64,000 bases of DNA, taken from NCBI RefSeq assembly GCF_047719395.1, contig NZ_JBDNTB010000005.1, forward strand, positions 1,431 to 65,430, given 5' to 3'. Below the pieces are notes generated by a model. It searched no databases. It was not told the DNA's origin and saw only the letters and a program-made list of their open reading frames with translations. The position numbers and the translations under genes are program-made. Of this stretch, positions 8,376-23,366 are shown one piece after another. The DNA comes from Propionibacterium sp. Lineage in GTDB: Bacteria > Actinomycetota > Actinomycetes > Propionibacteriales > Propionibacteriaceae. Numbering within the stretch: the first letter of the stretch is position 1; the number at the start of each line of letters is the position of its first letter.

Positions 8376-8641
8376 GGGCAGGGGCTGGAGCACCCGATGA
8401 TTATGGCACGGAGTGAGTGAGGGATCGGTCAGGGAGCGATTTCCTGTGGTGGGGTCGAGGCCGTGATGGGGTCGAGGCCGTGGTGGGTGTGCCCCCTGCG
8501 TCGTCTGGTCCAGCAGCATCGGCATGCGGATGGACTTCACGCCCGACTCGCGAAACGCCGAAACGCAGCTACGATGAGAAACAGAACGGACATTCTGCTT
8601 TGTCCCGTTTCAACCCTCGATCCCTGGAGGTGGTCGCTGCG

Positions 8642-11600
8642 ATGACCGATGACGTGCTCAAGCTGGGTCTTGATGTCGGCTCGACAACGGTGAAAGCCGT
8701 GGTCATGAACAACGGGGAGATCGTCTTCAGCGACTACCGGCGGCACAACGCCGATGTGCGTGGCGAGATGAAGAAGCTCCTGCTCGACATCCGCGACCGA
8801 TTCCCCGACGACGTCTTCCGGGTGGCAATGACCGGTTCGGGCGGGCTCGGCGTGGCACGCCTGATGGGCATCGACTTCCACCAGGAAGTCATCGCAGCCA
8901 CCGCAGCCATCCAGCGACTGAACCCCGACATGGATGTCGTCATCGAGCTCGGCGGCGAGGACGCCAAGATCACCTACCTGCACCCCACCCCCGAGCAGCG
9001 CATGAACGGCACCTGCGCCGGCGGCACCGGAGCCTTCATCGACCAGATGGCCTCGCTGCTGCGCACCGACGCCTCGGGTATGGACGAACTGGCCTCCCAC
9101 TACGAGAATCTCTACCCGATCGCCTCCCGCTGCGGAGTCTTCGCGAAGTCCGATGTGCAGCCGCTGCTCAACCAGGGTGCGGCTCACGCCGACATCGCCG
9201 CCTCGGTTTTCCAGGCCGTTGCCACACAGACCGTCGCAGGGCTCGCCTGCGGGCGCCCCATCCGAGGCCGCGTCATTCTGCTCGGTGGGCCGCTGCACTT
9301 CCTGCCGCAGTTGCGCGCCGCCTTCGAGCGGGTGCTCGGCGACAAGGTGGATGAGTACGTCACGCCCGAGGCCGGCCAGCTCTATGTCGCCATGGGTGCG
9401 GCTTTCCTGGCAGGCGGCCCCGAGCTGTCGCTGCCGCACCTGGCGGCCGAACTGGACTCCGCCAACCAGATCGCGGTGGCGTCCAAGACCATGCGTCCGC
9501 TCTTCCAGGACGCGGCCGAGCGCGCCGAGTTCGACACCCGGCACGCCGCCACCCCGGTGCCCACCGCCGACATCTCGGAGGCCTCCGGCGGGCTCTATCT
9601 CGGCATCGACGCCGGATCCACCACCATCAAGTCGGTGCTGCTCGACGAGCAGGGCCGCATCGTGCACTCCAGCTACGGCTCCAACCAGGGCGACCCGGTG
9701 ACCGCTTCCGTGGGCATCGCGCGCTCCGTGCTCAGCGCACTGCCCGAGGGCGCCACCATTGCCCGGACGTGCATCACCGGTTACGGCGAGGCCTTGGTGA
9801 AGACCGCGCTGCACGCCGACGAGGGTGAGATCGAGACCATGGCGCACTACCGTGCCGCCCGCGCCGTGTGCCCCGAGGTGACCAGCATCGTCGACATCGG
9901 CGGGCAGGACATGAAGTTCCTGCGCATTCGCAATGGGGCCGTCGACTCGATCGCCGTCAACGAGGCCTGTTCCTCGGGTTGCGGCTCCTTCTTGCAGACC
10001 TTTGCCGAAACCATGGGCACCGATGTGCGCAAGTTCGCGCAACTTGGTGCTGCCTCAGATGCGCCAGTGGACCTCGGGTCTCGGTGCACGGTATTCATGA
10101 ACTCCTCGGTGAAGCAGGCCCAGAAGGAGGGTGCCGGCATCGGCGACATCTCCGCCGGGCTGTCCTACTCGGTGGTGCGAAACGCCCTCTACAAGGTGAT
10201 GAAGCTGCGCGACGCCGGGGAACTCGGTGACCACGTGGTGGTGCAGGGCGGGACCTTCCTCAACGATGCCGTGCTGCGCGCCTTCGAACTGCTGACCAGC
10301 GTCGAAGTGACTCGGCCGGCCATCGCCGGTCACATGGGCGCCTACGGTGCCGCGCTCACCGCCACGATGCACGCCGCCCCCGGAGATGTCTCGGCAGTGA
10401 TGTCGCGCAATCTCGATGACTTCAGCTGGAGCAGCAGCCAGCGGGTGTGCCGCCTGTGCCAGAACCGCTGCAAACTCACCGTCACCAGTTTCGACGACGA
10501 TTCGCGGCATGTGTCGGGCAATCGCTGCGAACGCGGTGCCTCGCTGGACCCGCGCCCGGCCAAGTCCGAGGTGCCGAATCTGTACGAGTACAAGTACAAG
10601 CGCTACTTCAACTATCGGCGCCTGGTGGGGGAGAAGGCCACCCGCGGTCAGATCGGTGTTCCGCGTGCGCTCGGCATGTACGAGGACTACCCGCTGTGGT
10701 TCACCGTGCTCACCAAGCTCGGCTTCAGCGTGGTGCTCTCGGGGCGCTCGAACCACAAGCTGTTCGAGTCGGGTATGGAATCGATCGCCTCTGAAAACGT
10801 GTGTTACCCCGCCAAGTTGGCACACGGGCACATCGAGTGGCTGCTCGACCACGGCATTGAGACGATTTTCATGCCGTGCGTGAGCTACGAGCAGCGGCAG
10901 TTCGCGGAGGCTGACAACTCCTTCAACTGCCCCATCGTGGCCTTCTATCCGCAGGTGCTCGCCAAGAATGTGGAGCGCCTGAACCGGCCGGGAGTGCGCT
11001 TCCTGGATCCATTCCTCAACCTCAACAAGCCCGACGTGCTGGCTCGGCGTCTGGTGGAGATCTTCGCCGACTGGCATGTCGGTCTGGTCGAGGCGAAGGC
11101 CGCAGTGGCGGCCGGTTTCGAGGAACTCGACAAGGTGCATGCCGATGTGAAGGCCGAGGGGGATCGGGCGCTGCGGTACATGCGCGAGCACTCGATGCGC
11201 GGCATCGTGCTGGCCGGGCGGCCCTACCACGTGGACCCCGAGGTGAACCACGGAATCCCCGAGGCCATCACCCAGCTCGGCATGGTGGTGCTCAGCGAGG
11301 ATGCACTCACCGCAGGCATGAAGACCACCGGTTTCAAGCGACCGCTTCGGGTGCGCGACCAGTGGGTCTACCACACCCGCCTCTACGAGGCTGCAGGCCA
11401 GGTGCGCGAGATGCCCGATGTGAATCTGGTGCAGCTGAACTCGTTCGGCTGTGGGCTCGACGCGGTGACCACCGACCAGGTGCAGGACATCCTCGAGCAG
11501 GGCGACGATGTGTACACCGTGCTGAAGATCGACGAGGTCTCCAACCTGGGCGCCGCCAAGATCAGGCTGCGCTCCTTGCAGGCGGCTGCCGCGGAACGGC

Positions 11601-13138
11601 CCGGGTCGGCGGAGGTCGACACGGCCGGTCTTGGCGAGGCCAGGGAGGCTGGGGCCTTCGACCGCTCAGATGTTGATACTTCCCATGAGGGTCATATGGG
11701 GGACGGCCAGGCGGCGGCCTCGTCTGGGCATGAGCCGATCACGGTGCCGGCGTCCGTCACCCCGGCGTACACCAAGCAGATGCGCTCCACCCACACCGTC
11801 TACGTGCCTCAGATGGCGCCGCTGCATTTCCGGGCCATCGAGCCGCTGTTCCAGCGCTTCGGCTACCGCATGCAGGTGCTGGAGCATGCCTCCCGCGAGG
11901 ACCTCGAATGCGGCCTCAAGTACGTCAACAATGACGCCTGCTTCCCCGCAATCATGGTGATCGGCCAGCTCATCAACAAGTTCGTCGACGGCGACGCCGA
12001 CCCCGAGCACTCGGTGGTGGGCATCTCCCAGACCGGCGGCATGTGCCGGGCCACCAACTATGTCGGCATGCTGCGCCGTGGCTTGTCGTCGGCCGGTTAT
12101 CCGAACATTCCGGTGCTTGCGATGTCGGCCCAGGGGTTGGAGTCCAATCCCGGGTTCAAGCTCACCTGGTCGCTCGTGCACTCTGCCTTCCAGGGGCTCG
12201 TGTTGATGGATCTGCTGCAGGAGGTGCTGCTGCGGGTGCGTCCCTACGAGCGCGACGAGGGCTCCACGATGGCTCTCTATGAGCGCTGGAGCAGCCTGGT
12301 GAGCGAGTACATGGCGCACCCCAGTCGCTCCGAGATCGAGGGGCGCCGGTTGAGCTTCGGGTGGCTGTGCACCCACATGGTCGCCGAGTTCGATGCGCTG
12401 CCGCTTCTTGACATTCCGCGTAAACCGCGAGTTGGCGTAGTCGGTGAGATCCTGGTGAAATTCCAGCCGGACGCCAACAACAATGTCATCGGTGTCATCG
12501 AGGACGAGGGCTGCGAGGCGGTGCTCCCCGGCCTGCTCGGATTCTTCCTGCAGAGCCTGGCCACCGGTGATTGGCAGTGGGACAACTTCGGGCTCGGCAA
12601 GAACTCACGCCACGTCAAGAAGATGGCGTTGTGGTACATCGAGCGTTTCCAGAGGACCGCGAACAAGGCGCTTGCCGCCGCCAAGGGCAAGTTCGACACA
12701 CCCGAGGACATCCGGACGATGGCCAGGCGTGCCCAGAAGGTGATCTCATTGGGTACCACGGCCGGCGAGGGCTGGCTGCTGGTGGCCGAGATGATGCATC
12801 TCATTGAGTCCGGGTGCCCGAACATCATCTGCGCCCAGCCGTTCGCCTGCCTGCCCAATCACGTGGTGGGGCGCGGTATGTTCAAGCAGCTGCGCGAGCT
12901 GTACCCGGAGGCAAACATCACCTCGATCGACTACGACCCGGGTGCCTCCGAGGTGAATCAGCTGAACCGCATCAAGTTGATGATCGCCACGGCCTTCCAG
13001 AATGTCTCGGATGCCGGTCTTGCCAGGTGGAGCACCGACTTCGACACCGACTCGCCCCTGGGTGGGACGGGTTCGGCCGCGCACTCCTGCGGGCTTCACC
13101 CCGGGACACCGGTCGTGGCCGCCCGGGGACTGAGTTAG
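8642..13138 (+). CDS. Giant fusion: two BcrAD/BadFG/HgdC-type activase ATPase domains plus a 2-hydroxyacyl-CoA-dehydratase (HgdB/D-component)-like region
   Basis: Two actin-fold ATPase starts, LGLDVGSTTVKAVV and LGIDAGSTTIKSVLL, with ELGGEDAKI / DIGGQDMKFL. Cys cluster CRLCQNRCKLTV...GNRCERG. The dehydratase-like C-terminal half follows a low-complexity linker. ATG 8642 has GGAGG upstream. Confidence 0.85.
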   Translation: MTDDVLKLGLDVGSTTVKAVVMNNGEIVFSDYRRHNADVRGEMKKLLLDIRDRFPDDVFRVAMTGSGGLGVARLMGIDFHQEVIAATAAIQRLNPDMDVVIELGGEDAKITYLHPTPEQRMNGTCAGGTGAFIDQMASLLRTDASGMDELASHYENLYPIASRCGVFAKSDVQPLLNQGAAHADIAASVFQAVATQTVAGLACGRPIRGRVILLGGPLHFLPQLRAAFERVLGDKVDEYVTPEAGQLYVAMGAAFLAGGPELSLPHLAAELDSANQIAVASKTMRPLFQDAAERAEFDTRHAATPVPTADISEASGGLYLGIDAGSTTIKSVLLDEQGRIVHSSYGSNQGDPVTASVGIARSVLSALPEGATIARTCITGYGEALVKTALHADEGEIETMAHYRAARAVCPEVTSIVDIGGQDMKFLRIRNGAVDSIAVNEACSSGCGSFLQTFAETMGTDVRKFAQLGAASDAPVDLGSRCTVFMNSSVKQAQKEGAGIGDISAGLSYSVVRNALYKVMKLRDAGELGDHVVVQGGTFLNDAVLRAFELLTSVEVTRPAIAGHMGAYGAALTATMHAAPGDVSAVMSRNLDDFSWSSSQRVCRLCQNRCKLTVTSFDDDSRHVSGNRCERGASLDPRPAKSEVPNLYEYKYKRYFNYRRLVGEKATRGQIGVPRALGMYEDYPLWFTVLTKLGFSVVLSGRSNHKLFESGMESIASENVCYPAKLAHGHIEWLLDHGIETIFMPCVSYEQRQFAEADNSFNCPIVAFYPQVLAKNVERLNRPGVRFLDPFLNLNKPDVLARRLVEIFADWHVGLVEAKAAVAAGFEELDKVHADVKAEGDRALRYMREHSMRGIVLAGRPYHVDPEVNHGIPEAITQLGMVVLSEDALTAGMKTTGFKRPLRVRDQWVYHTRLYEAAGQVREMPDVNLVQLNSFGCGLDAVTTDQVQDILEQGDDVYTVLKIDEVSNLGAAKIRLRSLQAAAAERPGSAEVDTAGLGEAREAGAFDRSDVDTSHEGHMGDGQAAASSGHEPITVPASVTPAYTKQMRSTHTVYVPQMAPLHFRAIEPLFQRFGYRMQVLEHASREDLECGLKYVNNDACFPAIMVIGQLINKFVDGDADPEHSVVGISQTGGMCRATNYVGMLRRGLSSAGYPNIPVLAMSAQGLESNPGFKLTWSLVHSAFQGLVLMDLLQEVLLRVRPYERDEGSTMALYERWSSLVSEYMAHPSRSEIEGRRLSFGWLCTHMVAEFDALPLLDIPRKPRVGVVGEILVKFQPDANNNVIGVIEDEGCEAVLPGLLGFFLQSLATGDWQWDNFGLGKNSRHVKKMALWYIERFQRTANKALAAAKGKFDTPEDIRTMARRAQKVISLGTTAGEGWLLVAEMMHLIESGCPNIICAQPFACLPNHVVGRGMFKQLRELYPEANITSIDYDPGASEVNQLNRIKLMIATAFQNVSDAGLARWSTDFDTDSPLGGTGSAAHSCGLHPGTPVVAARGLS

Positions 13139-13166: not shown

Positions 13167-14732
13167 TCATTCTCCGATGGGCTGTGATGTCACGGAGAGC
13201 AGACCACGGGCATCGCAGCTGATGCTGATGGTGCGCCGCCACGAGTCGCTGGCTTCAGGGTGATCCGAACGCCGGTGCCAGCCGCGGGTTTCTGGCCTGG
13301 CGATGGCAGCGGCGGCGATCGCACCGCCCACCGTGCGAAGATTGGTGGTCGTGAGGTTCCGCTCGTCGAGCTCATCGTCAGCGGGCAGCCGCGACAGGAA
13401 GTCGAAGGCGCTGCGCAGCCGCTCGTGTTCGCGCACCATGCCGAGGGCGGTGTCGGCTGCGGTGTGGATGCCCTGCAGCGTGCTCACCGGGGTGCACCCA
13501 TCGGGTTCGCGCGGCACAGGTTCACCCGCCGCGGGCAACTGCCCGGATGCCAGCGCCTCACCGACCGCATCACCGGTGACCAGCGCCTGCAGCAGAGACA
13601 CATTGGCCGGGCCCTCGGCGCCCATCGCTCCCGTGCAACTGGCCTCGCCGGCAGCCCGCAGCCCGGGCACCGAGGTTGCGCCATGGGCATCCACCGCGAT
13701 CCCGCCGATCATCGTCTGGGTGGCCAGCCGGACGGGCACCGGCACATGAGCCGGGTCGACACCGTGCTCTCGGCAGGCCCGGGCGGTAGACAAATAGTCA
13801 TCGGAATCCCAGGCGTCCTCGCCGAGAATGCGCGTGTCCAGATAAATATCGCGATGTTTTGCGGCCCGGGCGTCGGCCACCGCGACAGCCAGTTCGCACG
13901 GCGAATGCGGCGGCAGCGACTCCGACCAGATCGGCTGCTGGTCGCCGTCCACCAGATCCGCGCCGTTTCGCCACAGCGTGGAGCCGAGCTCCACCAGGGG
14001 CTCGCCGGGCAGAGCCATCCGGCCCGAGACGGCGAGCGCGGTGGGGGTGAAGAAGACGAACTCCAGGTCTCGCAGGGTGGCACCTGCGCGCAACGCCATG
14101 GCAAGGCCATCGCCGGTGGCGGCCCGCGGCGTGGTGGTGTCTGTCCACAGCTGGCCGGCACCGCCACTGGCCAGCACCACGACGGGCGCCAGGTAGTCGC
14201 CCACAACTCCGTCGCGGCCGAGTACACGCAGTCCCGCCACATGGCCGGATTCGTCGGTCAGCACATCGACGGCCCGGCGGTCGGTGTCGATGCCCAGAGT
14301 GCCCGAGGGCTCGGCGGCCTCGGAGCGAACCAGCGATGACAAGGTGCGATACACCGTCATGCCAGCCGCCTGCCGCGGATCAGGGGTGCTCGGCATGGCT
14401 GCCGCAATGCGGTCGAACTGGTCGAGCACGCGGGGCACAGCATTGAGGAAATCCTTGGCAGCGGTCTGGTCGGCCAGTCCAGCGCCCTCGCGGACAAAGG
14501 CCTCGACGTCCGGCGGGGTGCGCCACTCGTCAAATGGCGAGGTTGCCCAGGCGGTGGCCGATGTGATGAGGCGTTCTCGACTGATCAACACCGAGGGCAC
14601 CCCGGAGGCCAGCAGCCGGGCCGACACGCTGAGGCCTGCAGCGCCGCCACCGACCACCACGACGCCGGTGCGCCGCGTCCACTCCGGCTCAGGCGTGGTG
14701 ATCTGCCGGGCCACTCGCATCGTCGTCGCCAT
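13167..14732 (-). CDS. FAD-dependent oxidoreductase, L-aspartate oxidase/fumarate reductase flavoprotein-like (divergent)
   Basis: Rossmann motif VVVVGGGAAGL. Clear NadB-like blocks VVLASGGAG...TGDGLAMALRAGATLRDLEF and RPETRGWHRRSDHPE. Several canonical catalytic positions appear substituted (see findings). Confidence 0.8.
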   Translation of the reverse strand: MATTMRVARQITTPEPEWTRRTGVVVVGGGAAGLSVSARLLASGVPSVLISRERLITSATAWATSPFDEWRTPPDVEAFVREGAGLADQTAAKDFLNAVPRVLDQFDRIAAAMPSTPDPRQAAGMTVYRTLSSLVRSEAAEPSGTLGIDTDRRAVDVLTDESGHVAGLRVLGRDGVVGDYLAPVVVLASGGAGQLWTDTTTPRAATGDGLAMALRAGATLRDLEFVFFTPTALAVSGRMALPGEPLVELGSTLWRNGADLVDGDQQPIWSESLPPHSPCELAVAVADARAAKHRDIYLDTRILGEDAWDSDDYLSTARACREHGVDPAHVPVPVRLATQTMIGGIAVDAHGATSVPGLRAAGEASCTGAMGAEGPANVSLLQALVTGDAVGEALASGQLPAAGEPVPREPDGCTPVSTLQGIHTAADTALGMVREHERLRSAFDFLSRLPADDELDERNLTTTNLRTVGGAIAAAAIARPETRGWHRRSDHPEASDSWRRTISISCDARGLLSVTSQPIGE

Positions 14733-14782
14733 ATCAGCTCCTGGAAGGCACAGTCGAGGTTCCCGCCCAGCATCCCACAGTG
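14710..14782. repeat. Left copy of the 73-bp direct repeat (contains the SD, ATG and first 7 codons of the nadB-like gene)
   Basis: gccactcgcatcgtcgtcgccatatcagctcctggaaggcacagtcgaggttcccgcccagcatcccacagtg matches 23294-23366 at 67 of 73 positions. Confidence 0.9.
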
Positions 14783-14803: not shown

Positions 14804-16237
14804 TCAGCGCTTGTAGTCACCCACCTTGAGCCATCCATCTGAACCAGTCGTCTGGTCGCGGTTGGCGAACCGTACCGGAACCCCGCCATTCACTGGATTC
14901 TTCACCCGCACTGCCAATTCGTAGGTGTCCTTCGGGAGCTTCTCAACCTGGAGGGTCCCCTCTGCCGTGGCCTGCTGACCAGGCTGGATGTTGTCGATCG
15001 AGCGATTGGCGACTGTTGAGGCCACGACATTTCCCGCCTTGTTGAGGAGCGCGATGTCCATTGGCCATGAGTAGTAGAAGGGGGCGACGCCATTGTTCTT
15101 CAGAACCACATCGACATTGATGGGGCCTTGCAGCTCAGTCTTTATGCCGGCCTTTTCTACCTGCATGATGTAGCCCATGGATGCCTCGGACTCGAGAGCG
15201 CTCTGCCGAGAATCACCGCTCACTCCTGGGGCAAAAGCTTGCTGGTTGACGAGCCAGCTGACATGGGACTGCTGAATTGCATAGGACATCCACGGCACAC
15301 AACTCGTCGCCGCAAACAAGCACGATTGACTGTCCGGGTAGACCTCGCCGCCGATTGGAGCCGTTTGCCACTTGTCAAGGGCCCCGGCTGACTTCATCAT
15401 CGAAAGGAAATGCCAACTCTCGGTGGGTAAGGTGGACGGTCCGAACGAATCATCGTGGTAGCCATTGTTCAGTTGGGCATTCCATGTCTCCGGGTAGCGA
15501 GTCAACGTGCGGGTCTTGTGGAAGGAGGAATCCCACTGCTTCGTCAAAGCAACCAGAGTATCTTGATTGGCCAACCAATTCTCCGGGAGGTCCCAGCCAT
15601 TCATGGGATAGGTATGACCCTCACCCCAGAAACCGATCAGCCCCTGCGTGATGAAGCCAATCCGAGGATCGCCATCATAACGTTGCCCCAACGCGGAGAC
15701 CAAGTCCAGCATCATGTTCTTTATTCGGGGATCATCATAATCGGGTGAGAAACTTATGCCATTGTTGTTGTAATCGTCGTAGCGCCGGGTTGTGTCGATT
15801 CCCTCGTCGATCAAATACTGCGGCACGCCTGTTTCACGGCCAGGATAGTCCAGATACAGGCGAAATACGGATTGGTGTCCTCGGGCGGCGATGGCGTTGA
15901 GTTGTGCGTCGAGGGCAGTCCAGTCGTACTGCTTCTCGCCCTTGACGATGGCATTGACAGGTAGATAGAACCATTCCATCGAATAGGGAAGTGCATCTTC
16001 ACTGAACCCGGGTGGTGAGTTCGGATCCGGAGCAAATGGAATGTATCCCTTCAACGCCGTCTCGGCTGGCGGAGCTGCAGTGGGAACATTTGTCCAAGTT
16101 GTCGGCAAATATCGGCTGATAAAAATTCCGCTTGTTAAAGCGACAACTATCAAGATAGCGAATATCACCCACCTTCGAGCAGAGACCTGGTGGTTTGTTG
16201 AGGTCTTCTCAACGGCTGAGGCGGTGTCGCTGTCCAT
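14804..16237 (-). CDS. Membrane-anchored glycoside-hydrolase-like protein (DUF4832-type), paralog 1
   Basis: N-terminal TM anchor WVIFAILIVVALTSGIFI. Blocks shared with paralog 2: ALPYSMEWFYLPVNA, VFRLYLDYPGRETGVPQYLID, GFWGEGHTYPMNG, NGVAPFYYSWPM. Confidence 0.75.
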   Translation of the reverse strand: MDSDTASAVEKTSTNHQVSARRWVIFAILIVVALTSGIFISRYLPTTWTNVPTAAPPAETALKGYIPFAPDPNSPPGFSEDALPYSMEWFYLPVNAIVKGEKQYDWTALDAQLNAIAARGHQSVFRLYLDYPGRETGVPQYLIDEGIDTTRRYDDYNNNGISFSPDYDDPRIKNMMLDLVSALGQRYDGDPRIGFITQGLIGFWGEGHTYPMNGWDLPENWLANQDTLVALTKQWDSSFHKTRTLTRYPETWNAQLNNGYHDDSFGPSTLPTESWHFLSMMKSAGALDKWQTAPIGGEVYPDSQSCLFAATSCVPWMSYAIQQSHVSWLVNQQAFAPGVSGDSRQSALESEASMGYIMQVEKAGIKTELQGPINVDVVLKNNGVAPFYYSWPMDIALLNKAGNVVASTVANRSIDNIQPGQQATAEGTLQVEKLPKDTYELAVRVKNPVNGGVPVRFANRDQTTGSDGWLKVGDYKR

Positions 16238-16266
16238 GATTGTTAACGATACGCCAAGGCTTCACG

Positions 16267-16298
16267 GTGTGCCCATCGTCCTTCCAATCAGGGCACAC
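16267..16298 (-). terminator. Hairpin between the two paralogs
   Basis: Perfect 8-bp arms gtgtgccc / gggcacac with a 16-nt loop, 7 nt downstream of the stop at 16305. Confidence 0.3.
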
Positions 16299-16304
16299 AT
16301 TCAG

Positions 16305-18116
16305 TCAGGGAAGAAGATGACCAATAGTCTTCAGCAGATCCCAATTCACGTTCCCGTTGGCATAGGAGTACCCATTGCCATGCCCATATGACCAACCATC
16401 ACCTGACGCCCATGCGTAGTCAGGACCCCATCCGTAGTTGTAGCCCGGGCCGTAGCCATAACCATAGCCCTGATTGACGGTATTGCCGGCGTCCGTGGTC
16501 TGCCAACTCGTGTTGTAGTCGTGAGAAGCGGGTTGAGAGGTGGTTTGCGGTGCGGCAGTGATTGTGACAGTCGTGGTGGCGGTGGCGGTGGCGGTGGCGG
16601 TGGAGGGCATCGGAGCCGTGGATGCGGCCGTCGTTGCAGATGGAGTCACGGTGGGAATGGGCGTAGAAGTGTCATTCGACGGAGTGACTGAAGCCGAAGG
16701 GGTTGGCTGAGCCTCCGTGCTGCCGCTGCCACTGTTGGTGGCCAGCGTTCCCAGGGTGTCCCAGCCAGTGAGCGTCTGGTCCTGTCCAGCCGCCGCGAAT
16801 TTGAGCGGAACCCCATTTTCCAGAGGGTTCACAACACGCATCACCACGTGGTACGACGCGTTGGGAATGCCATTCAGGGAAATCTCGGTGGAGAATTCGT
16901 TGACTTGACCGGGAAGCACTGCTGACAGATCACCGGGAAGAGTCTTCTTGGCCGAGATTTTCCCGGCGCTGTCCACGAGCGCTACCTCCATTGGCCACGA
17001 ATAATAGAAGGGGGCGACACCGTCATTCTTGAGACGAACCCCGATGCTTGCCGTTCCTCCCTCGGCACTGATACGCGTCTCAGTCGGGCGGATGACATAG
17101 CCCATGGCGGCCTGAGAATCCAAAGCCTTGTTCCGTGCATCGCCGGAATATCCAGGCGCAAAGGCTTGCTGGTTGATGAGCCAACTGACATGGGTTTGCT
17201 GAATTGACGTGGGGATTGGATCGGGAGCGCAGTCCGATGAAAACATGCACGACTGAATATCGGGATAAACTTCCCCGCCGATCGGCTCAGCCTCCCACTT
17301 TTCAGTTGCGCCTGCAGCCTGCAGCTGCGACAAGAAGTGCCAACTGGCACTGGTCAACGTGGCCGAGCCGAAAGAATCATCGTTGTACCCACTGGCCGAC
17401 CCCGCATTCCAGGACTCCGGGTAGCGCACCACGGTGTGCGTGGTGTGGAAGGCGGCATCCCATGCCTCCATCACCTCCGACTGGGTTTCCTGCCCAGGCA
17501 TCCAGTTCTCCGGGGAAGCCGAGCCGTCCATCGGATAGGTGTGATCCTCTCCCCAGAAGCCGATCAAGCCCTGGCTGATGAACCCAATCCTCGGGTCGCC
17601 GTCGTAGCGCTGTCCCAGCGAGGACACGAGATTCAACATCATGCTCTTCACGCGAGGATCGTCGTAATTCGGGGAGAAACTCTTTCCGTTGTTCCCATAG
17701 TCGTTGTAGTGCCGACTGGTGTCGATCCCAGCGTCTATCAAATACTGGGGTACGCCCGTGTCGCGCCCCGGGTAATCGAGATACAACCGGAAAACTGCTT
17801 GGTGCCCACGTCCGGCAATGGCGTTGAGCTGAGAGTCCAGTGCAGTCCAGTCATATTGGCCCTGGCCCTTCACCACTGCGTTCACGGGCAAGTAGAACCA
17901 TTCCATCGAATACGGCAGCGCGTCGCTCCCCAACCCAGATGATGAGTTCGATTCCGGGGCAAAGGGCATGAAGCCCTTCAATGGGTTGCTCGTGGGCGCC
18001 GATGCGGCGGTGAGCGCTTGCCACGATCCTGGGTCGGCTCTCGCAGCGCTGGGCTGAGCGAGTATGGCGAACAGCGCGAGAACAATGGCGAGCAAACGCG
18101 ATGCGTGCTTGGGCAC
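16305..18116 (-). CDS. Secreted glycoside-hydrolase-like protein (DUF4832-type), paralog 2, with a Thr/Pro/Ser linker and a Gly/Tyr/Asn/Trp-rich C-terminal tail
   Basis: GTG start with GGGAG upstream. Signal peptide LLAIVLALFAILAQPSAARA. Same conserved blocks as paralog 1. The tail reads ...TATATATATTTVTITAAPQTT...GYGYGYGPGYNYGWGPDYAWASGDGWSYGHGNGYSYANGNVNW. Confidence 0.75.
   Translation of the reverse strand: MPKHASRLLAIVLALFAILAQPSAARADPGSWQALTAASAPTSNPLKGFMPFAPESNSSSGLGSDALPYSMEWFYLPVNAVVKGQGQYDWTALDSQLNAIAGRGHQAVFRLYLDYPGRDTGVPQYLIDAGIDTSRHYNDYGNNGKSFSPNYDDPRVKSMMLNLVSSLGQRYDGDPRIGFISQGLIGFWGEDHTYPMDGSASPENWMPGQETQSEVMEAWDAAFHTTHTVVRYPESWNAGSASGYNDDSFGSATLTSASWHFLSQLQAAGATEKWEAEPIGGEVYPDIQSCMFSSDCAPDPIPTSIQQTHVSWLINQQAFAPGYSGDARNKALDSQAAMGYVIRPTETRISAEGGTASIGVRLKNDGVAPFYYSWPMEVALVDSAGKISAKKTLPGDLSAVLPGQVNEFSTEISLNGIPNASYHVVMRVVNPLENGVPLKFAAAGQDQTLTGWDTLGTLATNSGSGSTEAQPTPSASVTPSNDTSTPIPTVTPSATTAASTAPMPSTATATATATTTVTITAAPQTTSQPASHDYNTSWQTTDAGNTVNQGYGYGYGPGYNYGWGPDYAWASGDGWSYGHGNGYSYANGNVNWDLLKTIGHLLP
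16575..16604. repeat. Hexanucleotide microsatellite (GGTGGC)x4 plus GGTGGA inside the paralog 2 linker
   Basis: Read directly from the sequence. It encodes the (Ala-Thr)n run and is in-frame, so slippage would change linker length only. Confidence 0.85.
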
Positions 18117-18230
18117 TATGAGCTCCCTGTGGTGGAGGTCTGCGTTAGAGGGGTGGAGGTCATCTCACGCGATGACTGAGCCTGGCGATACACCTGAAGA
18201 ATAATTGAGAATAACTTAGCTTGAGTTCAA

Positions 18231-18268
18231 TGTCCGCAGGGTGGTTGGTCACTGTCCGCAGGGTGGTT
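18231..18268. promoter_or_regulatory. Two perfect 16-bp direct repeats tgtccgcagggtggtt with a 22-bp period, upstream of paralog 2
   Basis: Copies at 18231-18246 and 18253-18268, 115-150 nt upstream of the GTG at 18116 and next to an AT-rich stretch (gaagaataattgagaataactt). Confidence 0.4.
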
Positions 18269-18389
18269 CGGATCCAGCGTGCTGTGCACGTACGTGGGCA
18301 ATGGTGGCCGTCCCGTGGGGCGCCGGAGGACATCGGAGCGTTGCCCCACGTGTGCCGCGCCGGTCCGAGCGTCATGGGCGCAGCCGGGT

Positions 18390-19472
18390 TCAAGAAGATT
18401 CGTTGTCGAGAGGTTTCTTCATGAAGATGCACTGCTGAGGAGGCAATCTGACCGTTGCGCCGTCATTGAATTCAGGGGGGAAAGTGAGGTCGACGTGGTG
18501 CGTGGAGGTGAGGTTGACCGCGGCATAGCCATCCTCGAAAGTGCGCGACCAGCATCCGCACTCTCCCTCGACGCCGCTGACCGGCGCACCGAGATCCCAG
18601 TCGGCCTCCGGCTGCCAAGGAGCTCCGTCGTAGCTGTCGTGGTCCGTCGCAGTGACGGCAAAGTCGCCTCCACCGCTGAATATCCAACCCGCAGCCAGTG
18701 CGGTCAGAAAACGATCGCGCTCGTTGGTCTCGTCGGCAGCAGTCCGCATGATGGAGAGGCCAGGGCCGTTGAGTTGCGACATCTGCGCATGGCACACTTC
18801 GGCGGGGAATGGTTCATTCGCGCTTGCAGCGAGCCACACTTCTTCAAATCCACCGCCGAATCGTGCATGACGATCCCAACGGCCGGATTCACGCCGGGAT
18901 TCGGCAATGTTCGGCACGAGGATCTTGTCAACCGCGTTGAGTGCAGCTCCGGCTTGCGTGATGAACTCGTCCAAGGCTTCACGAACCTCGGGCATTCCGT
19001 ATCCTCCTTCAAGAGGAAGGATTCCGTAGTAGTCCTCGAAGACGTCGTTGTCGGCCATCACTCCGTCGAACGGTCCCACAGAGATCTCGCGGACAACATT
19101 GCGGATCCAGCAGTCGCGATATCGCTGGTTCCACACCGCCATCTGCCAGTGGCCGGTGTAGCCGTTCCACTCGATCCGGGTCTTGCCAGCTGAGCCCTCA
19201 CGATGGGCGAACATGTCTTCGCCGATCTTCTCGGCCTCCCCGAACCCCACTCCTGAACTGCGAACGGGACCCGGCTCGAAGGAGCGGGTAGAACTCAGGC
19301 ACTTGTAAGCCAGCACCGTCACGGCCGGCTCCATGGCCTTCAGCTGAGCGGCTGCGACAGTCTCCCATGGCTGGAGGATTGCGACGCGGCAGTGTTCGGC
19401 GGCAAACCGAATCTCAGATTCGCGGATCTGCTCATCGCCGTAGCGCACCCACGCGGTGAAGCGACGGGTCAC
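18390..19472 (-). CDS. Hypothetical cytoplasmic protein. A polysaccharide-processing (TIM-barrel hydrolase-like) role is suggested by context only.
   Basis: 360-aa ORF without a signal peptide. Its ATG overlaps the PelF-like stop (ATGA), implying translational coupling. I recognised no diagnostic motif. Confidence 0.5.
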   Translation of the reverse strand: MTRRFTAWVRYGDEQIRESEIRFAAEHCRVAILQPWETVAAAQLKAMEPAVTVLAYKCLSSTRSFEPGPVRSSGVGFGEAEKIGEDMFAHREGSAGKTRIEWNGYTGHWQMAVWNQRYRDCWIRNVVREISVGPFDGVMADNDVFEDYYGILPLEGGYGMPEVREALDEFITQAGAALNAVDKILVPNIAESRRESGRWDRHARFGGGFEEVWLAASANEPFPAEVCHAQMSQLNGPGLSIMRTAADETNERDRFLTALAAGWIFSGGGDFAVTATDHDSYDGAPWQPEADWDLGAPVSGVEGECGCWSRTFEDGYAAVNLTSTHHVDLTFPPEFNDGATVRLPPQQCIFMKKPLDNESS

Positions 19473-21268
19473 AGGGCGTCCCGACCTGGCTGCGGGACCG
19501 AGGATTCATCAGAAGCGCGAGCGGCTTTGCCATCCGGGCCCTGAGAGATGTCCTCCCGAGTCCGGGCAGATTCAACTCTGGGAACAATGGCTGTCGCCCT
19601 CGACGCTTCTTCGTCAGCGGAGGATGAGGAGATCCAGTCGTCAGCGTTTGCTTCAGAGGCCGACTGCGCCACCGCACCGGTGAGGAATTGTGCTATATCG
19701 CTGGGATCGTTCATACGTCCGATTGCCCGGTACAGCGCGTGGTAACGCGCCATCACATCTTCCAGACGGAAGCTTGACTGGACACGACGATGAGCCATTT
19801 CGACATAGCGGCCGTAACGCGGCAGGTCATTGACAAGCGAAATCGTTTCTCTCGCCATTCCCTTGATGTCGCCGGCATCAATGAGCACGCCGCAAGGTCC
19901 GAGTTGTGTGCCGTCACGGTCGATCAGCACATCATCAAGAACCTGGCGCATACCGCCGACCTCGGTTCCGACCGTGGGAATGCCGCTGGCCATCGCTTCG
20001 AGCACCACAATCGGCTGACCCTCGTTGTAGCTCGCCATGAGCAACAGGTCATAGGAGGTGATGAGCTTTCGGACATTGACGGTGCCCAGGAGGTGCACGT
20101 AGTCCGACAACCCGAGATCGACGATGAGTTTCTCGCATTCAGCCGTGTATTCGGGCACATGTTCCTTGGGGCCCATCACGTCGAGGGTGAAGTTGGTGAA
20201 GCCCGAGTCAATCATGACCTTCGCCGCATGGATGAGGTCCAACACGCCCTTGATGGGCACGATCCGCACGATAGAGCACAGCTTCCACGTCTGCTTGCCG
20301 TGCGCAACGATCTCGGCAGTGATTTCCTTCCGGATCTCATAGCGGGGCTCGAACTCGGCAAGAGGCATACCGTTCGGCAGTACGATCGCGCGTTCGGTGG
20401 GGGACCCGAGGGCCCGGGCTTCGCTCAACGCCAGCGGGTACAGGTAGGTGATGATCTCGGCCTTCGGGTAGCAGAACGGCCCCATCTCGATCCACCAGGT
20501 CATCCAGGCGCGCTGCTTGGGCGTGGCCTCGAAGATCTTGTAGTCCTCCCGTAGCAACGGCAGCGCCATGTTGCGGTCGAGGAGCTCGTTGACGGTGTCG
20601 CGAATGTAGAGGTTGTGTTCGGTCAGCAGGAAATGAGTGCCATTCTGGCGCGCTGCGGCTGCAGCGGTCGCTGCCGCATAGCCAGTGGTGTGTGCGTGGT
20701 AAACCTTCGCCTTCGGGAAATCATGGTCCAAAATGGCATAGGCCAAGGAGAAGAAGTCGCGTAGCACCCAGAAGCAGTCCGACAATGACATTCCCAGGGC
20801 ATTCCAGCGATCGATGACCACATCCATGAATTCTTTGGTGCCCAGCAATGGCCAGATGCGGAATTTCCTCGTCCGGGGGTTCACGCCATCGTCATACAGA
20901 GACCACAAGGGTTCAACATCGTCTTGCTGGACGGCGGCCAATGCGTCGAGAAGGCGATTGGCGAGGTCGCGTCGCGCGCGTGAGCCGGTTGGTAGGTCAC
21001 GAGGGCCGAGGGACAGCAACGCTTTCCGATTGGTTTGAAAGCTCTGGAAGTGAACCTTCACCCACTTCACATTCTCCGGGACCTCGTACAGATCCTTCAG
21101 TGGTGAGTTCTCATCCCACGTGATGTGGATGATCCCGAAAGTGATGTCGGGATTCATGCTGATGATGTCATGGACGACAGCGGACACCCCACCCTTCAGG
21201 TATGGGTAAGTGGACTCCATGACAATGCACACGTCCACGTCGCAGAATTCAGTGCGGCTGTAAGTCAC
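19469..21268 (-). CDS. PelF-like glycosyltransferase (DUF3492-type N-domain plus GT4 domain)
   Basis: The N-terminus DVDVCIVMESTYPYLKGGVSAVVHDII...ITFGIIHI resembles the remembered PelF N-terminus (DVCLLLEGTWPYVRGGVSSW...). The GT4 E-x7-E region is NEGQPIVVLEAMASGIPTVGTEVGG. Confidence 0.75.
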   Translation of the reverse strand: MTYSRTEFCDVDVCIVMESTYPYLKGGVSAVVHDIISMNPDITFGIIHITWDENSPLKDLYEVPENVKWVKVHFQSFQTNRKALLSLGPRDLPTGSRARRDLANRLLDALAAVQQDDVEPLWSLYDDGVNPRTRKFRIWPLLGTKEFMDVVIDRWNALGMSLSDCFWVLRDFFSLAYAILDHDFPKAKVYHAHTTGYAAATAAAAARQNGTHFLLTEHNLYIRDTVNELLDRNMALPLLREDYKIFEATPKQRAWMTWWIEMGPFCYPKAEIITYLYPLALSEARALGSPTERAIVLPNGMPLAEFEPRYEIRKEITAEIVAHGKQTWKLCSIVRIVPIKGVLDLIHAAKVMIDSGFTNFTLDVMGPKEHVPEYTAECEKLIVDLGLSDYVHLLGTVNVRKLITSYDLLLMASYNEGQPIVVLEAMASGIPTVGTEVGGMRQVLDDVLIDRDGTQLGPCGVLIDAGDIKGMARETISLVNDLPRYGRYVEMAHRRVQSSFRLEDVMARYHALYRAIGRMNDPSDIAQFLTGAVAQSASEANADDWISSSSADEEASRATAIVPRVESARTREDISQGPDGKAARASDESSVPQPGRDAL

Positions 21269-21316
21269 TTGATTCTCCTTGCCGGTAAAGATTCAGAGCG
21301 CTGGGACAGGCGGCGC

Positions 21317-22768
21317 TCACCATTGCATGGCGAATCGCCAGAACATCTGATAGGGAATGCTCCCCCAGACTTGACGTGTGCGGATGTAACCGACTATGGA
21401 CAACACGACATCCACAGCAATGACGAACCAAATGGTCGAACTCACCGGGGGGACGAGCAAGGCGAACACGGCCAGCAGATGGATGCCGGCGAGCCAACAG
21501 GCCCAACCGCGATGCTGGATGTATTCAAGGTGATAGCAAAGGATTGTCACGACCAGGGCCGCGATCGGCCCGATGTAGAGACCAAGGGGCAGCTGGGGCC
21601 CGCCAATCACCTGGAGCAACAGGTGCAGGCCAAGTGCTGCGACAGCGGCAACCGCCAACGTGCGGGCAATTGCGTGGCCCACCACATCAGAGACGAGATT
21701 CGCCTGCCTGCGCAACTCCTTGGTCCCGCTTCTCTGCACCGCACCACTGGCCTGCTCCACGGCAAGATCAAGATTTGGGGCGAGTTGTGCAAAGTAGTAG
21801 CTGTACGCGAGTACGGCAGGGACCAGAGCCAGATACATGTCAAAGATGCCCATGGCGGATTGCGTCATGAGGAGGACCACGACCTTGTCCGCCCACAGGA
21901 CCGATCCGGTGAGGAAGCCACGCGCAGTGTCGGTTATGTATCCTCGGAATTCCTTGGCCGACGGCCGGTGCCAGTGCACATCTGAACTCACGGCGAGCAG
22001 GATGGCCACATTTGGGATGGTGCCTGCGATCGGTGCCAGCAGCCAGAGCTGAGGTGCGATGAAGATGACTGCTGCATAAGCGGCCCAGGAAACCACCAGC
22101 ATGACATCGAGCCGAGCCTGATTGATGACGACTTGCGACTGTGCGAAGAATGCGTGGGCGATAATGCCGAACATCACGTAGAGAAATGCCGCTGGTGGCC
22201 AGTGGGTGATGGCTTCGACGACCACCATGAAGATCGCGGCCACCGGCAGCGTTGCCAAAACGATGTTGGGCCACAATGCGAGGACCCGCCCTGCAACCAG
22301 ATGCGGATCACGCTGGTCCTTGAGATCCCAGAAGTATCTGTAGAACGCAACACAGACGGCCTGACTCATCCATGGCACGGTGACGGATACAGCCAGGAAA
22401 ACACTTCCAGCTTGGACCGAATTCACATCCTGCGCATCAATACGCGTGATGACAAGCGGGAAGACAATCATCAACAAGACAGTGGGCGACATCTTCGCCA
22501 AGAGGCCTCCGATGCCGCGCAGTGCATCAGGGGCCCCGGCATGAAATGGTGCCGCGTCATATCGTCCCCTCACCAGCATCAAAACAGTGATGCCGATCAC
22601 GACTGCCATGGCAGCGATGAGGTACGGCTTGGACAAGTGGATGTCTGGAGCCAACGCAAGAAGTGCGATTGCTACCGCTGATACCACCCACAGCATTGGG
22701 TGGGTGCGTTTGATCGTGATGATTTGTCCGGATGACGGTTTAATTGGTTTAATTTGTCCGGATGTCAC
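21317..22768 (-). CDS. Polytopic membrane protein, candidate polysaccharide exporter (PelG-like by position only)
   Basis: 483 aa and at least 10 hydrophobic segments. It lies directly upstream of the PelF-like gene with a 48-nt gap. I saw no sequence-level match to PelG. Confidence 0.45.
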   Translation of the reverse strand: MTSGQIKPIKPSSGQIITIKRTHPMLWVVSAVAIALLALAPDIHLSKPYLIAAMAVVIGITVLMLVRGRYDAAPFHAGAPDALRGIGGLLAKMSPTVLLMIVFPLVITRIDAQDVNSVQAGSVFLAVSVTVPWMSQAVCVAFYRYFWDLKDQRDPHLVAGRVLALWPNIVLATLPVAAIFMVVVEAITHWPPAAFLYVMFGIIAHAFFAQSQVVINQARLDVMLVVSWAAYAAVIFIAPQLWLLAPIAGTIPNVAILLAVSSDVHWHRPSAKEFRGYITDTARGFLTGSVLWADKVVVLLMTQSAMGIFDMYLALVPAVLAYSYYFAQLAPNLDLAVEQASGAVQRSGTKELRRQANLVSDVVGHAIARTLAVAAVAALGLHLLLQVIGGPQLPLGLYIGPIAALVVTILCYHLEYIQHRGWACWLAGIHLLAVFALLVPPVSSTIWFVIAVDVVLSIVGYIRTRQVWGSIPYQMFWRFAMQW

Positions 22769-23293
22769 GTGTAACTCCTTGGGGCGGGCGGCTTCGACAA
22801 TCGAGGTGCCGCTGGTTCTGCACAGTGAGCCTGCGCCGCCTCAGTGGCGCAGGACACCTCCAAGGCGTCACTGCACCAACCACCATAGAACAGAAGTCTT
22901 GCAGGTGCGGAACCTACGTAGAGGTAGGACCATTCCAGGACCCGGACGGGGCTCAGGTGGCTGGCAAGTCTCTGAAACCAGCGGCGTGTGGTTTGCGCCA
23001 ATCAGGCAGCGCGGCCATCAGATGATGTTCCTGGAAGGAAGGTATCCGCCCTTGCCAGAGGAACTCCCTGGTATGCAGTTGTTGCGAACTGATTCTCGCC
23101 GTCCTGGTTGAAGGAAGAGCCCGCTGATGGTAGCGGTAATCGTGCCTGATATCTGGCATATGTCAATTATTGGTTCAGAAATGGTTGTCAGCCCTCACGC
23201 AGGTGCTGTTGCACGGCCTTTTGCACAGGAGGTCATCTCCGGTTCGCCGCTCTGCGGGTCGGTCACCAGCTCAGCAGATGTGCGCACCAGATG

Positions 23294-23366
23294 GCCGCTC
23301 GCATCGTCGTCGCCATATCAGCTCCGGGAAGGCACAATCGAAGTTCCCGCCCGGCATCCCACGGTG
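23294..23366. repeat. Right copy of the 73-bp direct repeat (fossil SD + ATG; the frame ends after 17 codons)
   Basis: gccgctcgcatcgtcgtcgccatatcagctccgggaaggcacaatcgaagttcccgcccggcatcccacggtg. On the minus strand it reads AGGAG-N6-ATG GCG ACG ACG ATG CGA ..., giving MATTMRAAIWCAHLLSW-stop. Confidence 0.9.

Follow-up and report, generated by a model that had tools for sequence, protein, structure and literature searches.

A probable minimal Pel/galactosaminogalactan-like exopolysaccharide locus of actinobacterial type in a Propionibacterium genome

Introduction

Few biofilm polysaccharides have been studied as well as Pel. Its synthase is considered to require PelD, PelE, PelF and PelG together, under control by cyclic dimeric GMP (c-di-GMP), and the route by which the polymer is polymerised and exported is still unsolved. 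Here we describe a five-gene locus in a 64-kb stretch of one Propionibacterium sp. genome (hereafter the window, to which statements on the locus refer). Its core is a trio of genes for a PelG-like membrane protein, a PelF-type glycosyltransferase and a cytoplasmic protein of the Pfam family GHL15, and it is accompanied by two genes for DUF4832-type hydrolases. We assign a probability of roughly 60% to the reading that the locus is a horizontally inserted, minimal exopolysaccharide system of actinobacterial type, similar to Pel and to fungal galactosaminogalactan (GAG). This reading rests on the membership of the glycosyltransferase in the PelF family, the PelG-like fold and homology of the membrane protein, the conservation of the trio, its substrate-linked partners, and mobility.

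In surveys of Gram-positive Pel, the actinobacterial loci are of the pelDEA(DA)FG type with an extended PelD, e.g., in Bifidobacterium. In streptococci and clostridia, DUF4832 genes directly adjoin pelDEA(DA)FG (PMC7112168), and SIR_1591 of Streptococcus intermedius, a 468-aa protein with a transmembrane (TM) helix, a TIM barrel and DUF4832, is hydrolytically active and disperses aggregates of Pel (PMC12345266). The Propionibacterium locus resembles the Gram-positive pelDEA(DA)FG systems of Bacillus cereus and S. intermedius in its PelF of glycosyltransferase family 4 (GT4), its PelG-related MOP-type protein and its TM-anchored DUF4832 hydrolase (PMC7112168, PMC12345266), as well as in lacking the outer-membrane parts PelB and PelC. 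In contrast to them, it has no PelD (c-di-GMP receptor or epimerase-like), PelE or PelA deacetylase, its PelG is too divergent for the family hidden Markov models (HMMs) and the gene order is reversed, while the trio adds an invariable cytoplasmic GHL15 protein and is confined to Actinomycetota.

With Pseudomonas aeruginosa pelABCDEFG, the locus shares PelF, a PelG relative and a glycoside hydrolase tied to the synthase, as is the hydrolase domain of PelA. However, the hydrolase-like core partner of the trio is cytoplasmic and similar to GHL15 and glycoside hydrolase (GH) family 168, not GH166, and the deacetylase, the PelB/PelC export pore, PelD and PelE are all absent. The fungal GAG cluster comprises Uge3, Gtb3, Sph3 (GH135), Ega3 (GH114) and Agd3 (carbohydrate esterase family 18, CE18), and GAG synthesis requires the hydrolase Sph3, which is extracytoplasmic (PMC11356417). 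The position of the hydrolase-like GHL15 as a core trio member parallels this requirement, and trio loci related to that of the window carry a GalE-type epimerase, Spherulin4/GH135 and GH114 beside the synthase. Unlike the fungal pathway, the trio synthase consists of a soluble PelF and a separate membrane protein, no CE18 deacetylase was found, and the window has DUF4832 hydrolases in place of GH135 and GH114.

Results

A first-pass annotation had proposed five minus-strand open reading frames (ORFs), all of which were recovered:

21317-22768, minus strand: PelG-like polytopic membrane protein, 483 aa, MOP-superfamily fold with ~14 hydrophobic helices; proposed translocation component
19469-21268, minus strand: PelF-type cytoplasmic GT4 glycosyltransferase, 599 aa, by NCBIfam and Pfam; proposed polymerase
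18390-19472, minus strand: GHL15/GH168-like (beta/alpha)8 protein, 360 aa, without signal peptide, by Pfam GHL15, AlphaFold2 (AF2) and Foldseek
16305-18116, minus strand: secreted DUF4832-type hydrolase, 603 aa, by Pfam DUF4832 and an N-terminal signal-like segment
14804-16237, minus strand: membrane-anchored DUF4832-type hydrolase, 477 aa, by Pfam DUF4832 and a single TM segment

The 599-aa protein is identified by its profile matches as a genuine PelF-family enzyme. The NCBIfam PelF equivalog NF038011 matched it over the full length of the model (positions 1-489) with 233.4 bits against a cut-off of 100, the next-best NCBIfam family reaching 86 bits, and Pfam found DUF3492 (E 1.4e-39) plus Glycos_transf_1. 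The enzyme thus lies inside the PelF family, the placement on which the first-pass annotation had let its interpretation depend; its calls of a PelF-like GT4 enzyme for this protein and of the DUF4832 type for both downstream products were likewise supported. The PelF-like N-terminus that it had quoted, DVDVCIVMESTYPYLKGGVSAVVHDII, is present in the product, an EX7E motif lies at E416-E424, hydropathy shows no TM or hydrophobic segment, and the C-terminal tail looks disordered. The identity to annotated proteobacterial PelF is 26-30%. PADLOC, which was run after a sub-threshold GT4-conflict Pfam match to this protein, gave no defence-system match.

The 483-aa protein had no Pfam or NCBIfam match even at E=10, and a PelG-family match was also absent in 10 distant relatives (Pfam) and in 60 family members (NCBIfam). 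The word-indexed search found 7 relatives, a number that rose to 160 when 1.84 billion representatives were searched exhaustively with a profile. Foldseek with the AF2 model (pLDDT 78.8, pTM 0.80) returned MOP-superfamily transporters only, headed by MATE, MurJ and WzxE, all with probability 1.0. When the 60-member family alignment was compared by hhalign with four PelG proteins annotated in the canonical pel loci of proteobacterial plasmids, the match had a probability of 93% and an E of 3.3e-7 over the C-terminal ~200 columns. A Wzx flippase, as control, gave E 0.53 and a single PelG gave E 0.006 in the same region; a 7-sequence alignment of the membrane protein against one PelG gave no signal. 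A W-x-D-K motif is common to PelG and this family (here W292, D294 and K295). Judged from profile and predicted fold, the protein is a very divergent, remote PelG homolog with a MOP-flippase fold. Its gene adjoins that of PelF in 83/83 related loci and lies directly 5' of it in 81 of them, the reverse of the canonical pelF-pelG order.

Near its 5' end, the pelG-like ORF contains a 27-nt imperfect tandem repeat (22708-22764), which is translated into a repeated SGQI..K peptide. Since homologs start about 14-17 residues later, translation may in truth begin at a codon downstream of the GTG at 22768.

The fold of the membrane protein bears on another explanation, by which the trio makes a cell-envelope glycoconjugate (a lipid-linked oligosaccharide, wall glycopolymer or glycolipid) that is flipped by the MOP-type protein and edited by GHL15. 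The closest solved folds are indeed the lipid-linked-oligosaccharide flippases MurJ and WzxE and MATE transporters, and GT4 enzymes, as in the secondary NCBIfam matches, commonly make glycolipids and wall glycopolymers. We nevertheless consider it quite unlikely, because the remote homology holds for PelG but not for Wzx, no gene for a polyprenyl-phosphate priming transferase, ligase or polymerase recurs near the trio, and the partners that do recur are endo-acting hydrolases with specificity for Pel/GAG polysaccharides.

The 360-aa protein, previously called unassigned, is matched by Pfam GHL15 (PF14885) with E 4.6e-40 and 138.7 bits against a cut-off of 27 (model 1-270/271). Its AF2 model, built on a 40-sequence alignment, reached a pLDDT of 91.6 and has a (beta/alpha)8 barrel and a C-terminal beta domain. 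The best Foldseek matches were the GH168 endo-alpha-1,3-fucanases 9jom, 9nhf, 9f9v and 8rg3 (E 1e-13 to 1e-12, TM-score 0.67-0.70), followed by a GH191 alpha-galactosaminidase, TM1410, the GH114 endo-alpha-1,4-galactosaminidase Ega3 and GH66 dextranases; the structural neighbours of the model are all alpha-glycan-active TIM barrels. The family profile weakly matches PDB entry 9nhf, named 'GHL15 protein' by its depositors, while a PDB sequence search with the single protein gave nothing useful.

In the GHL15 family alignment, the invariant acidic residues are D141, D143, E191 and E211. The catalytic pair of MeGH168 consists of the nucleophile Asp167 and the acid/base Glu237 (PMC12210190). HMMER aligns the Asp of the 'FMD' motif of MeGH168 with invariant D141, and we take this Asp to be the Asp167 of PMC12210190, the numbering of the chain differing from that of the paper. 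The invariant E211 follows D141 by ~70 residues, the spacing of Asp167 and Glu237, and is by this distance the candidate acid/base. On account of the aligned Asp and the spacing of E211, the catalytic Asp/Glu pair appears to be kept. The trio protein has the fold and the Pfam family of the GH168 endo-alpha-1,3-L-fucanases (9nhf, 8ya7, 9jom; TM-score ~0.67-0.70), an aligned Asp as putative nucleophile and a Glu at matching spacing. In contrast to these enzymes, which are secreted, catabolic and act on sulfated fucans, it has no signal peptide, is coupled to a biosynthetic glycosyltransferase and is only ~14-18% identical to them.

Hydropathy detected no signal peptide, TM or hydrophobic segment in the GHL15 protein. 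The residues A7, W8, R10 and Y11 are invariant and lie within the first beta-strand of the fold, and only 11 in-frame codons are open upstream of the start. The GTG start overlaps the PelF stop by 4 nt, an arrangement that leads to translational coupling; the overlap reads GTGA (CTG TGA / GTG ACC) rather than the ATGA reported earlier. The 4-nt overlap recurs in Kocuria, Paenarthrobacter and the examined Propionibacteriaceae loci.

The pairing of a GT4 enzyme with a retaining glycoside hydrolase is established in Actinobacteria by the GlgE pathway, and GHL15 itself could be the real polymerase, a GlgE-like cytoplasmic retaining transglycosylase for which PelF makes an activated or primed short donor, as the GT4 enzyme GlgM does for GlgE in actinobacterial alpha-glucan synthesis. 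Such a role would suit a cytoplasmic protein with invariant residues of the retaining catalytic type that is translationally coupled to a GT4 enzyme. We regard it as rather improbable since no sugar-1-phosphate donor pathway is evident in the trio loci, the enzymes of the PelF family are regarded as the Pel polymerases, and the closest solved relatives of GHL15 (GH168, GH191, GH114) are hydrolases.

The distribution of the trio was determined with the GHL15 alignment and profile in a scan of 185,579 species, one genome per species. GHL15 relatives were found in the genomes of 139 species and 80 loci were fetched, all from Actinomycetota apart from one record labelled Vibrio cholerae. The hosts include Rothia (among them R. 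mucilaginosa), Kocuria, Arthrobacter, Pseudarthrobacter, Kineococcus, Acidimicrobiales, Pseudonocardiales, Micromonosporaceae and Corynebacterium. Purpose-built HMMs located PelG-like and PelF genes beside GHL15 in 78/80 fetched loci, the two exceptions being short contigs. The order PelG-like>PelF>GHL15 holds in 59 of the 83 non-redundant loci, and GHL15 is upstream or divergent in most others. A Kocuria locus contains the PelG-like, PelF and GHL15 genes only, and in a metagenomic contig the trio core adjoins an IS21 element. Paenarthrobacter aurescens TC1 carries the trio on its conjugative plasmid pTC2, where galE and a DUF4832 gene come after it and galU lies upstream. A metagenome-assembled genome of a related member of Propionibacteriaceae has all five gene types in another order, with the DUF4832 pair first, and in another chromosomal context. 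Across these genomes, the conserved unit is the actinobacterial trio of PelG-like, PelF and GHL15 genes, and not the five genes that had been proposed.

A literature search gave no paper on a PelG-like/PelF/GHL15 module, in agreement with the earlier suggestion that the cassette could be undescribed; the module is apparently new to the searchable literature.

Several related loci have features of their own. The record labelled V. cholerae strain 35D (WNZI01000020.1) carries an Arthrobacter-type trio and the gene for a secreted ~484-aa protein, and it is probably a contaminant or a mis-binned actinobacterial contig. Corynebacterium cystitidis has two tandem PelF paralogs with a Rib-domain surface protein downstream, and C. 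antarcticum also has two PelF-family paralogs. Near the trio on pTC2 are genes for a PAS-GGDEF-EAL protein, an Hpt protein, a SpoIIE phosphatase and a response regulator, neighbours that hint at c-di-GMP or phosphorelay control in P. aurescens TC1.

Pfam and NCBIfam detected no PelD, PelE or deacetylase domains in the five island proteins. A phmmer search with proteobacterial PelA, PelB, PelC, PelD and PelE (three PelD and PelE queries, a partial PelA query) found no homolog in the window or the 83 loci, though its sensitivity was low, and no deacetylase was among the recurrent neighbour families scanned around the trio. The earlier statement that PelD, PelE and PelA are not recognisable thus holds for the locus and the 83 related loci. 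PelG is not missing, as the 483-aa protein is a remote homolog.

These absences raise the question of whether the locus is a fragment of an ordinary Gram-positive Pel system whose PelD, PelE and PelA(DA) are unlinked or too divergent. In its favour, the PelF passes the equivalog model, the 483-aa protein has remote homology to PelG, pelDEA(DA)FG loci are known to carry accessory DUF4832 genes, 64 kb of the genome were inspected and the search for PelD, PelE and PelA was insensitive. However, the trio travels alone, on pTC2, in the 8.5-kb island described below and in varied contexts in >80 species without a PelD/E/A-like neighbour. The pelG-like gene precedes pelF in reversal of the canonical order, the GHL15 gene is universal in the trio and unreported in described pel loci, and the PelF protein is only 26-30% identical to annotated proteobacterial PelF. 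We therefore hold this explanation to be unlikely.

The two DUF4832 paralogs are 56% identical in protein and 71-76% in DNA sequence. Pfam DUF4832, located C-terminally, matched the 477-aa protein with E 2e-12 and the 603-aa protein with E 9.6e-11, both above the cut-off, and weak N-terminal DUF4874 matches accompanied them (E 0.045 and 0.09, respectively). The 477-aa protein has a single TM anchor at residues 24-42 and the 603-aa protein a signal-like hydrophobic segment at residues 1-25; both are predicted to be extracytoplasmic. The equivalents of the candidate catalytic residues E206 and E298 are invariant in the family alignment. PDB sequence searches with the single proteins and the DUF4832 profile gave nothing useful, and no Firmicute pel-linked DUF4832 gene was found on the plasmids where one was sought as a bridge to SIR_1591. 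The idea that the pair takes the place of PelD, PelE and PelA is not borne out: such genes are known accessories of Gram-positive pelDEA(DA)FG, and most core-bearing loci are without them.

The 603-aa protein consists of a signal peptide, a catalytic region, a Thr/Ser/Pro-rich linker and a Gly/Tyr/Trp-rich C-terminal tail. The C-terminal ~150 aa (16305-16750) contain GYGYGYGPGYNYGWGPDYAWASGDGWSYGHGNGYSY and have no Pfam match; the tail may be a cell-wall or polymer-binding module. Longer DUF4832 homologs of 601-613 aa occur in related Propionibacteriaceae. Kribbella flavida (CP001736.1) also has a DUF4832 pair, with ~45% identity to the window proteins and, in one member, carbohydrate-binding modules of the CBM6/35/13 type. 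The pair lies in a sugar-uptake locus that encodes GH36, GH31, a ROK regulator and an ATP-binding cassette (ABC) transporter but not PelF. This context suggests a catabolic use of the DUF4832 family, possibly on polymers of N-acetylgalactosamine (GalNAc) or galactose (Gal).

The five genes might accordingly not be one system but a catabolic, glycan-foraging DUF4832 pair beside an unrelated biosynthetic trio. The Kribbella pair, in a utilisation locus (ABC transporter, GH36, GH31, ROK) without PelF, a stand-alone DUF4832 copy in Actinomyces oris and the 273-bp gap with its own repeat motif between the DUF4832 genes and the GHL15 gene all speak for this separation. We find it very unlikely given that the pair accompanies the trio in other Propionibacteriaceae, in different order and genomic context, that single copies occur with the trio in 11 Pseudarthrobacter/Arthrobacter-type loci and on pTC2, that all five genes lie inside one repeat-bounded island, and that the island contains no transporter or sugar-catabolism gene.

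For the neighbour analysis, ORFs around the trio in the 83 loci were clustered and cluster representatives were scanned. No further universal gene was found beside the trio, and the partner set is variable:

GalE-type epimerase: 17 loci
GalU-type nucleotidyltransferase: 10 loci
OmpR-type response regulator: 10 loci
DUF4832 hydrolase of the type found in the window: 15 loci
classical DUF4874+DUF4832 protein: 12 loci
secreted ~484-aa protein without Pfam match: 12 loci
GH114 (PF03537, E 1e-38 to 1e-42): 4 loci, Acidimicrobiales
Spherulin4/GH135 (E 1e-35 to 1e-42): 7 loci

DUF4832-type genes of either sort are present in 27/83 trio loci, the GH135 gene lies between PelF and GHL15 in three, and a hydrolase partner (DUF4832, GH114 or GH135) occurs in ~49 of the 83. 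GH135 (Sph3) cuts GalNAc-rich alpha-1,4 polymers and GH114 (Ega3) galactosamine-rich ones (PMC11356417, PMC12345266). The recurrence of GalE and of hydrolase partners from three families active on Pel/GAG-type polymers points, by analogy, to an alpha-1,4-GalNAc(/Gal)-type polymer as the product of the trio.

The secreted ~484-aa family is encoded directly 3' of GHL15 in 12 loci of Arthrobacter and Kocuria (e.g., at positions 11156-12643 of one such locus), and in its FDGIFLDDA motif and strand pattern it recalls the TIM barrels of GH114/GHL. A comparison with GHL15 gave a suggestive motif alignment but an hhalign probability of only 6%, and Pfam has no match for the family.

The non-coding features of the island and its edges are as follows:

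23293-23366, no strand: 74-nt direct repeat, right copy, the upstream edge of the island, by repeat search and pairwise alignment
22769-23292, minus strand: non-coding leader/promoter region of ~520 bp, 5' of the pelG-like gene and within the island, by ORF list, Rfam and promoter scan
18231-18267, minus strand: two exact 15-nt direct repeats ACCACCCTGCGGACA, 22 nt apart, a candidate regulator binding site in the 273-bp gap
14709-14782, no strand: 74-nt direct repeat, left copy, the downstream edge of the island, by repeat search and pairwise alignment

The copies of the imperfect 74-nt repeat are identical at 68/74 positions (92%) with a spacing of 8584, and pairwise alignment shows that the repeat ends sharply, the flanking sequence outside being unrelated. 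It covers the stretch upstream of nadB together with the first 8 codons of this gene; the left copy holds the functional nadB start (14732) with its upstream region, which the right copy duplicates. The 8.5-kb segment between the copies contains exactly the five genes and the ~520-bp leader. Its GC content is 0.583 compared to 0.645 and 0.656 in the flanks, with third-position GC (GC3) of 0.65-0.735 versus 0.74-0.85. Since the direct repeat brackets a segment of lower GC, the five-gene locus is, from its sequence, an insertion into the nadB 5' region, which bears out the earlier proposal of a horizontally acquired island. Related trio copies adjoin IS21 or ride on the conjugative plasmid pTC2. 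There is no integrase or transposase among the five genes of the island and no tRNA in the window, and a search for an empty-site contig via the exact NadB and VIT1-family proteins returned no informative contig.

In the leader, we found no convincing ORF, Rfam family or consensus promoter; promoter and terminator consensus matches were at chance level, and an Rfam scan of the whole window, with the c-di-GMP riboswitch among its targets, gave no match. The ACCACCCTGCGGACA repeats lie between the GHL15 stop and the first DUF4832 gene and have no other copy in the window at <=2 mismatches. The pair is possibly a response-regulator binding site, a candidate suggested by the OmpR-type regulators that recur near related loci. 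Elsewhere in the window, at 8417-13138 on the plus strand, a 1573-aa ORF resembles, by eye, a fusion of a BcrAD/BadFG-type activase ATPase and a 2-hydroxyacyl-CoA-dehydratase-like protein.

Discussion

If the locus is a minimal Pel/GAG-like system, the soluble PelF would polymerise an alpha-linked hexosamine or galactose chain from a UDP-sugar at the cytoplasmic face, most likely rich in alpha-1,4-GalNAc as in Pel. The PelG-like MOP-fold protein could then carry the chain across the membrane, as its fold, remote homology and invariable adjacency to PelF suggest. GHL15 would be a cytoplasmic, probably catalytically competent partner of the retaining alpha-glycanase type, made in step with PelF. 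It could act on the nascent chain in chain-length control, release of the primer or end, or transglycosylation, which is the weakest step of the proposal, and it could also, or instead, scaffold the complex in place of PelD and PelE. Outside the cell, the anchored and secreted DUF4832 hydrolases may trim the polymer, set it free or disperse it, in the manner of PelA(H), Sph3 or SIR_1591 in known systems. Because the locus encodes no deacetylase, the polymer may stay N-acetylated, or it may be modified by genes elsewhere in the genome. The need for Sph3 in fungal GAG synthesis shows that pathways of this sort can have a glycanase as an integral part.

Several observations weigh against this reading. 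No PelG HMM recognises the 483-aa membrane protein, and the hhalign match to PelG is confined to its C-terminal half. PelD, PelE and the PelA deacetylase, which canonical Pel needs, were not found by the low-sensitivity phmmer search within the 64 kb visible. The link of the 477-aa protein to SIR_1591 is by shared Pfam family and by layout and size as published. Close DUF4832 homologs also occur in catabolic sugar-uptake (Kribbella) and Wzx/Wzy-type loci, so the family is not specific to Pel. The window itself has neither galE nor galU, and the suggested polymer derives from the neighbours of related loci, not from any experiment on the trio. Finally, we know of no precedent for a cytoplasmic glycanase in Pel systems, and the role of GHL15 is therefore conjecture.

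A bolder version, possible but doubtful, is that the trio is a self-sufficient, actinobacteria-specific synthase that works without PelD, PelE and a deacetylase, with GHL15 as an obligatory catalytic or scaffolding subunit in initiation, release or elongation by transglycosylation. If this is true, the synthase would have a cytoplasmic retaining glycanase as an obligatory subunit, and no synthase-dependent exopolysaccharide system is known to work in that way. With GH135, GH114 and GalE among its partners, the trio could in addition be the bacterial counterpart of the fungal GAG pathway.

A three-gene version of Pel without PelD and PelE would be much simpler for reconstituting synthesis and export, and the DUF4832, GH114 and GH135 enzymes that accompany the trio are candidate reagents against biofilms. 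The trio occurs in at least 139 actinobacterial species, some of them human-associated (Rothia mucilaginosa, Kocuria, Corynebacterium) and others, such as Arthrobacter, from soil. With it, the range of GalNAc-type matrix polymers would grow by a phylum in which they have hardly been studied, and the question arises of why a cytoplasmic glycanase-like enzyme is tied to the synthase.

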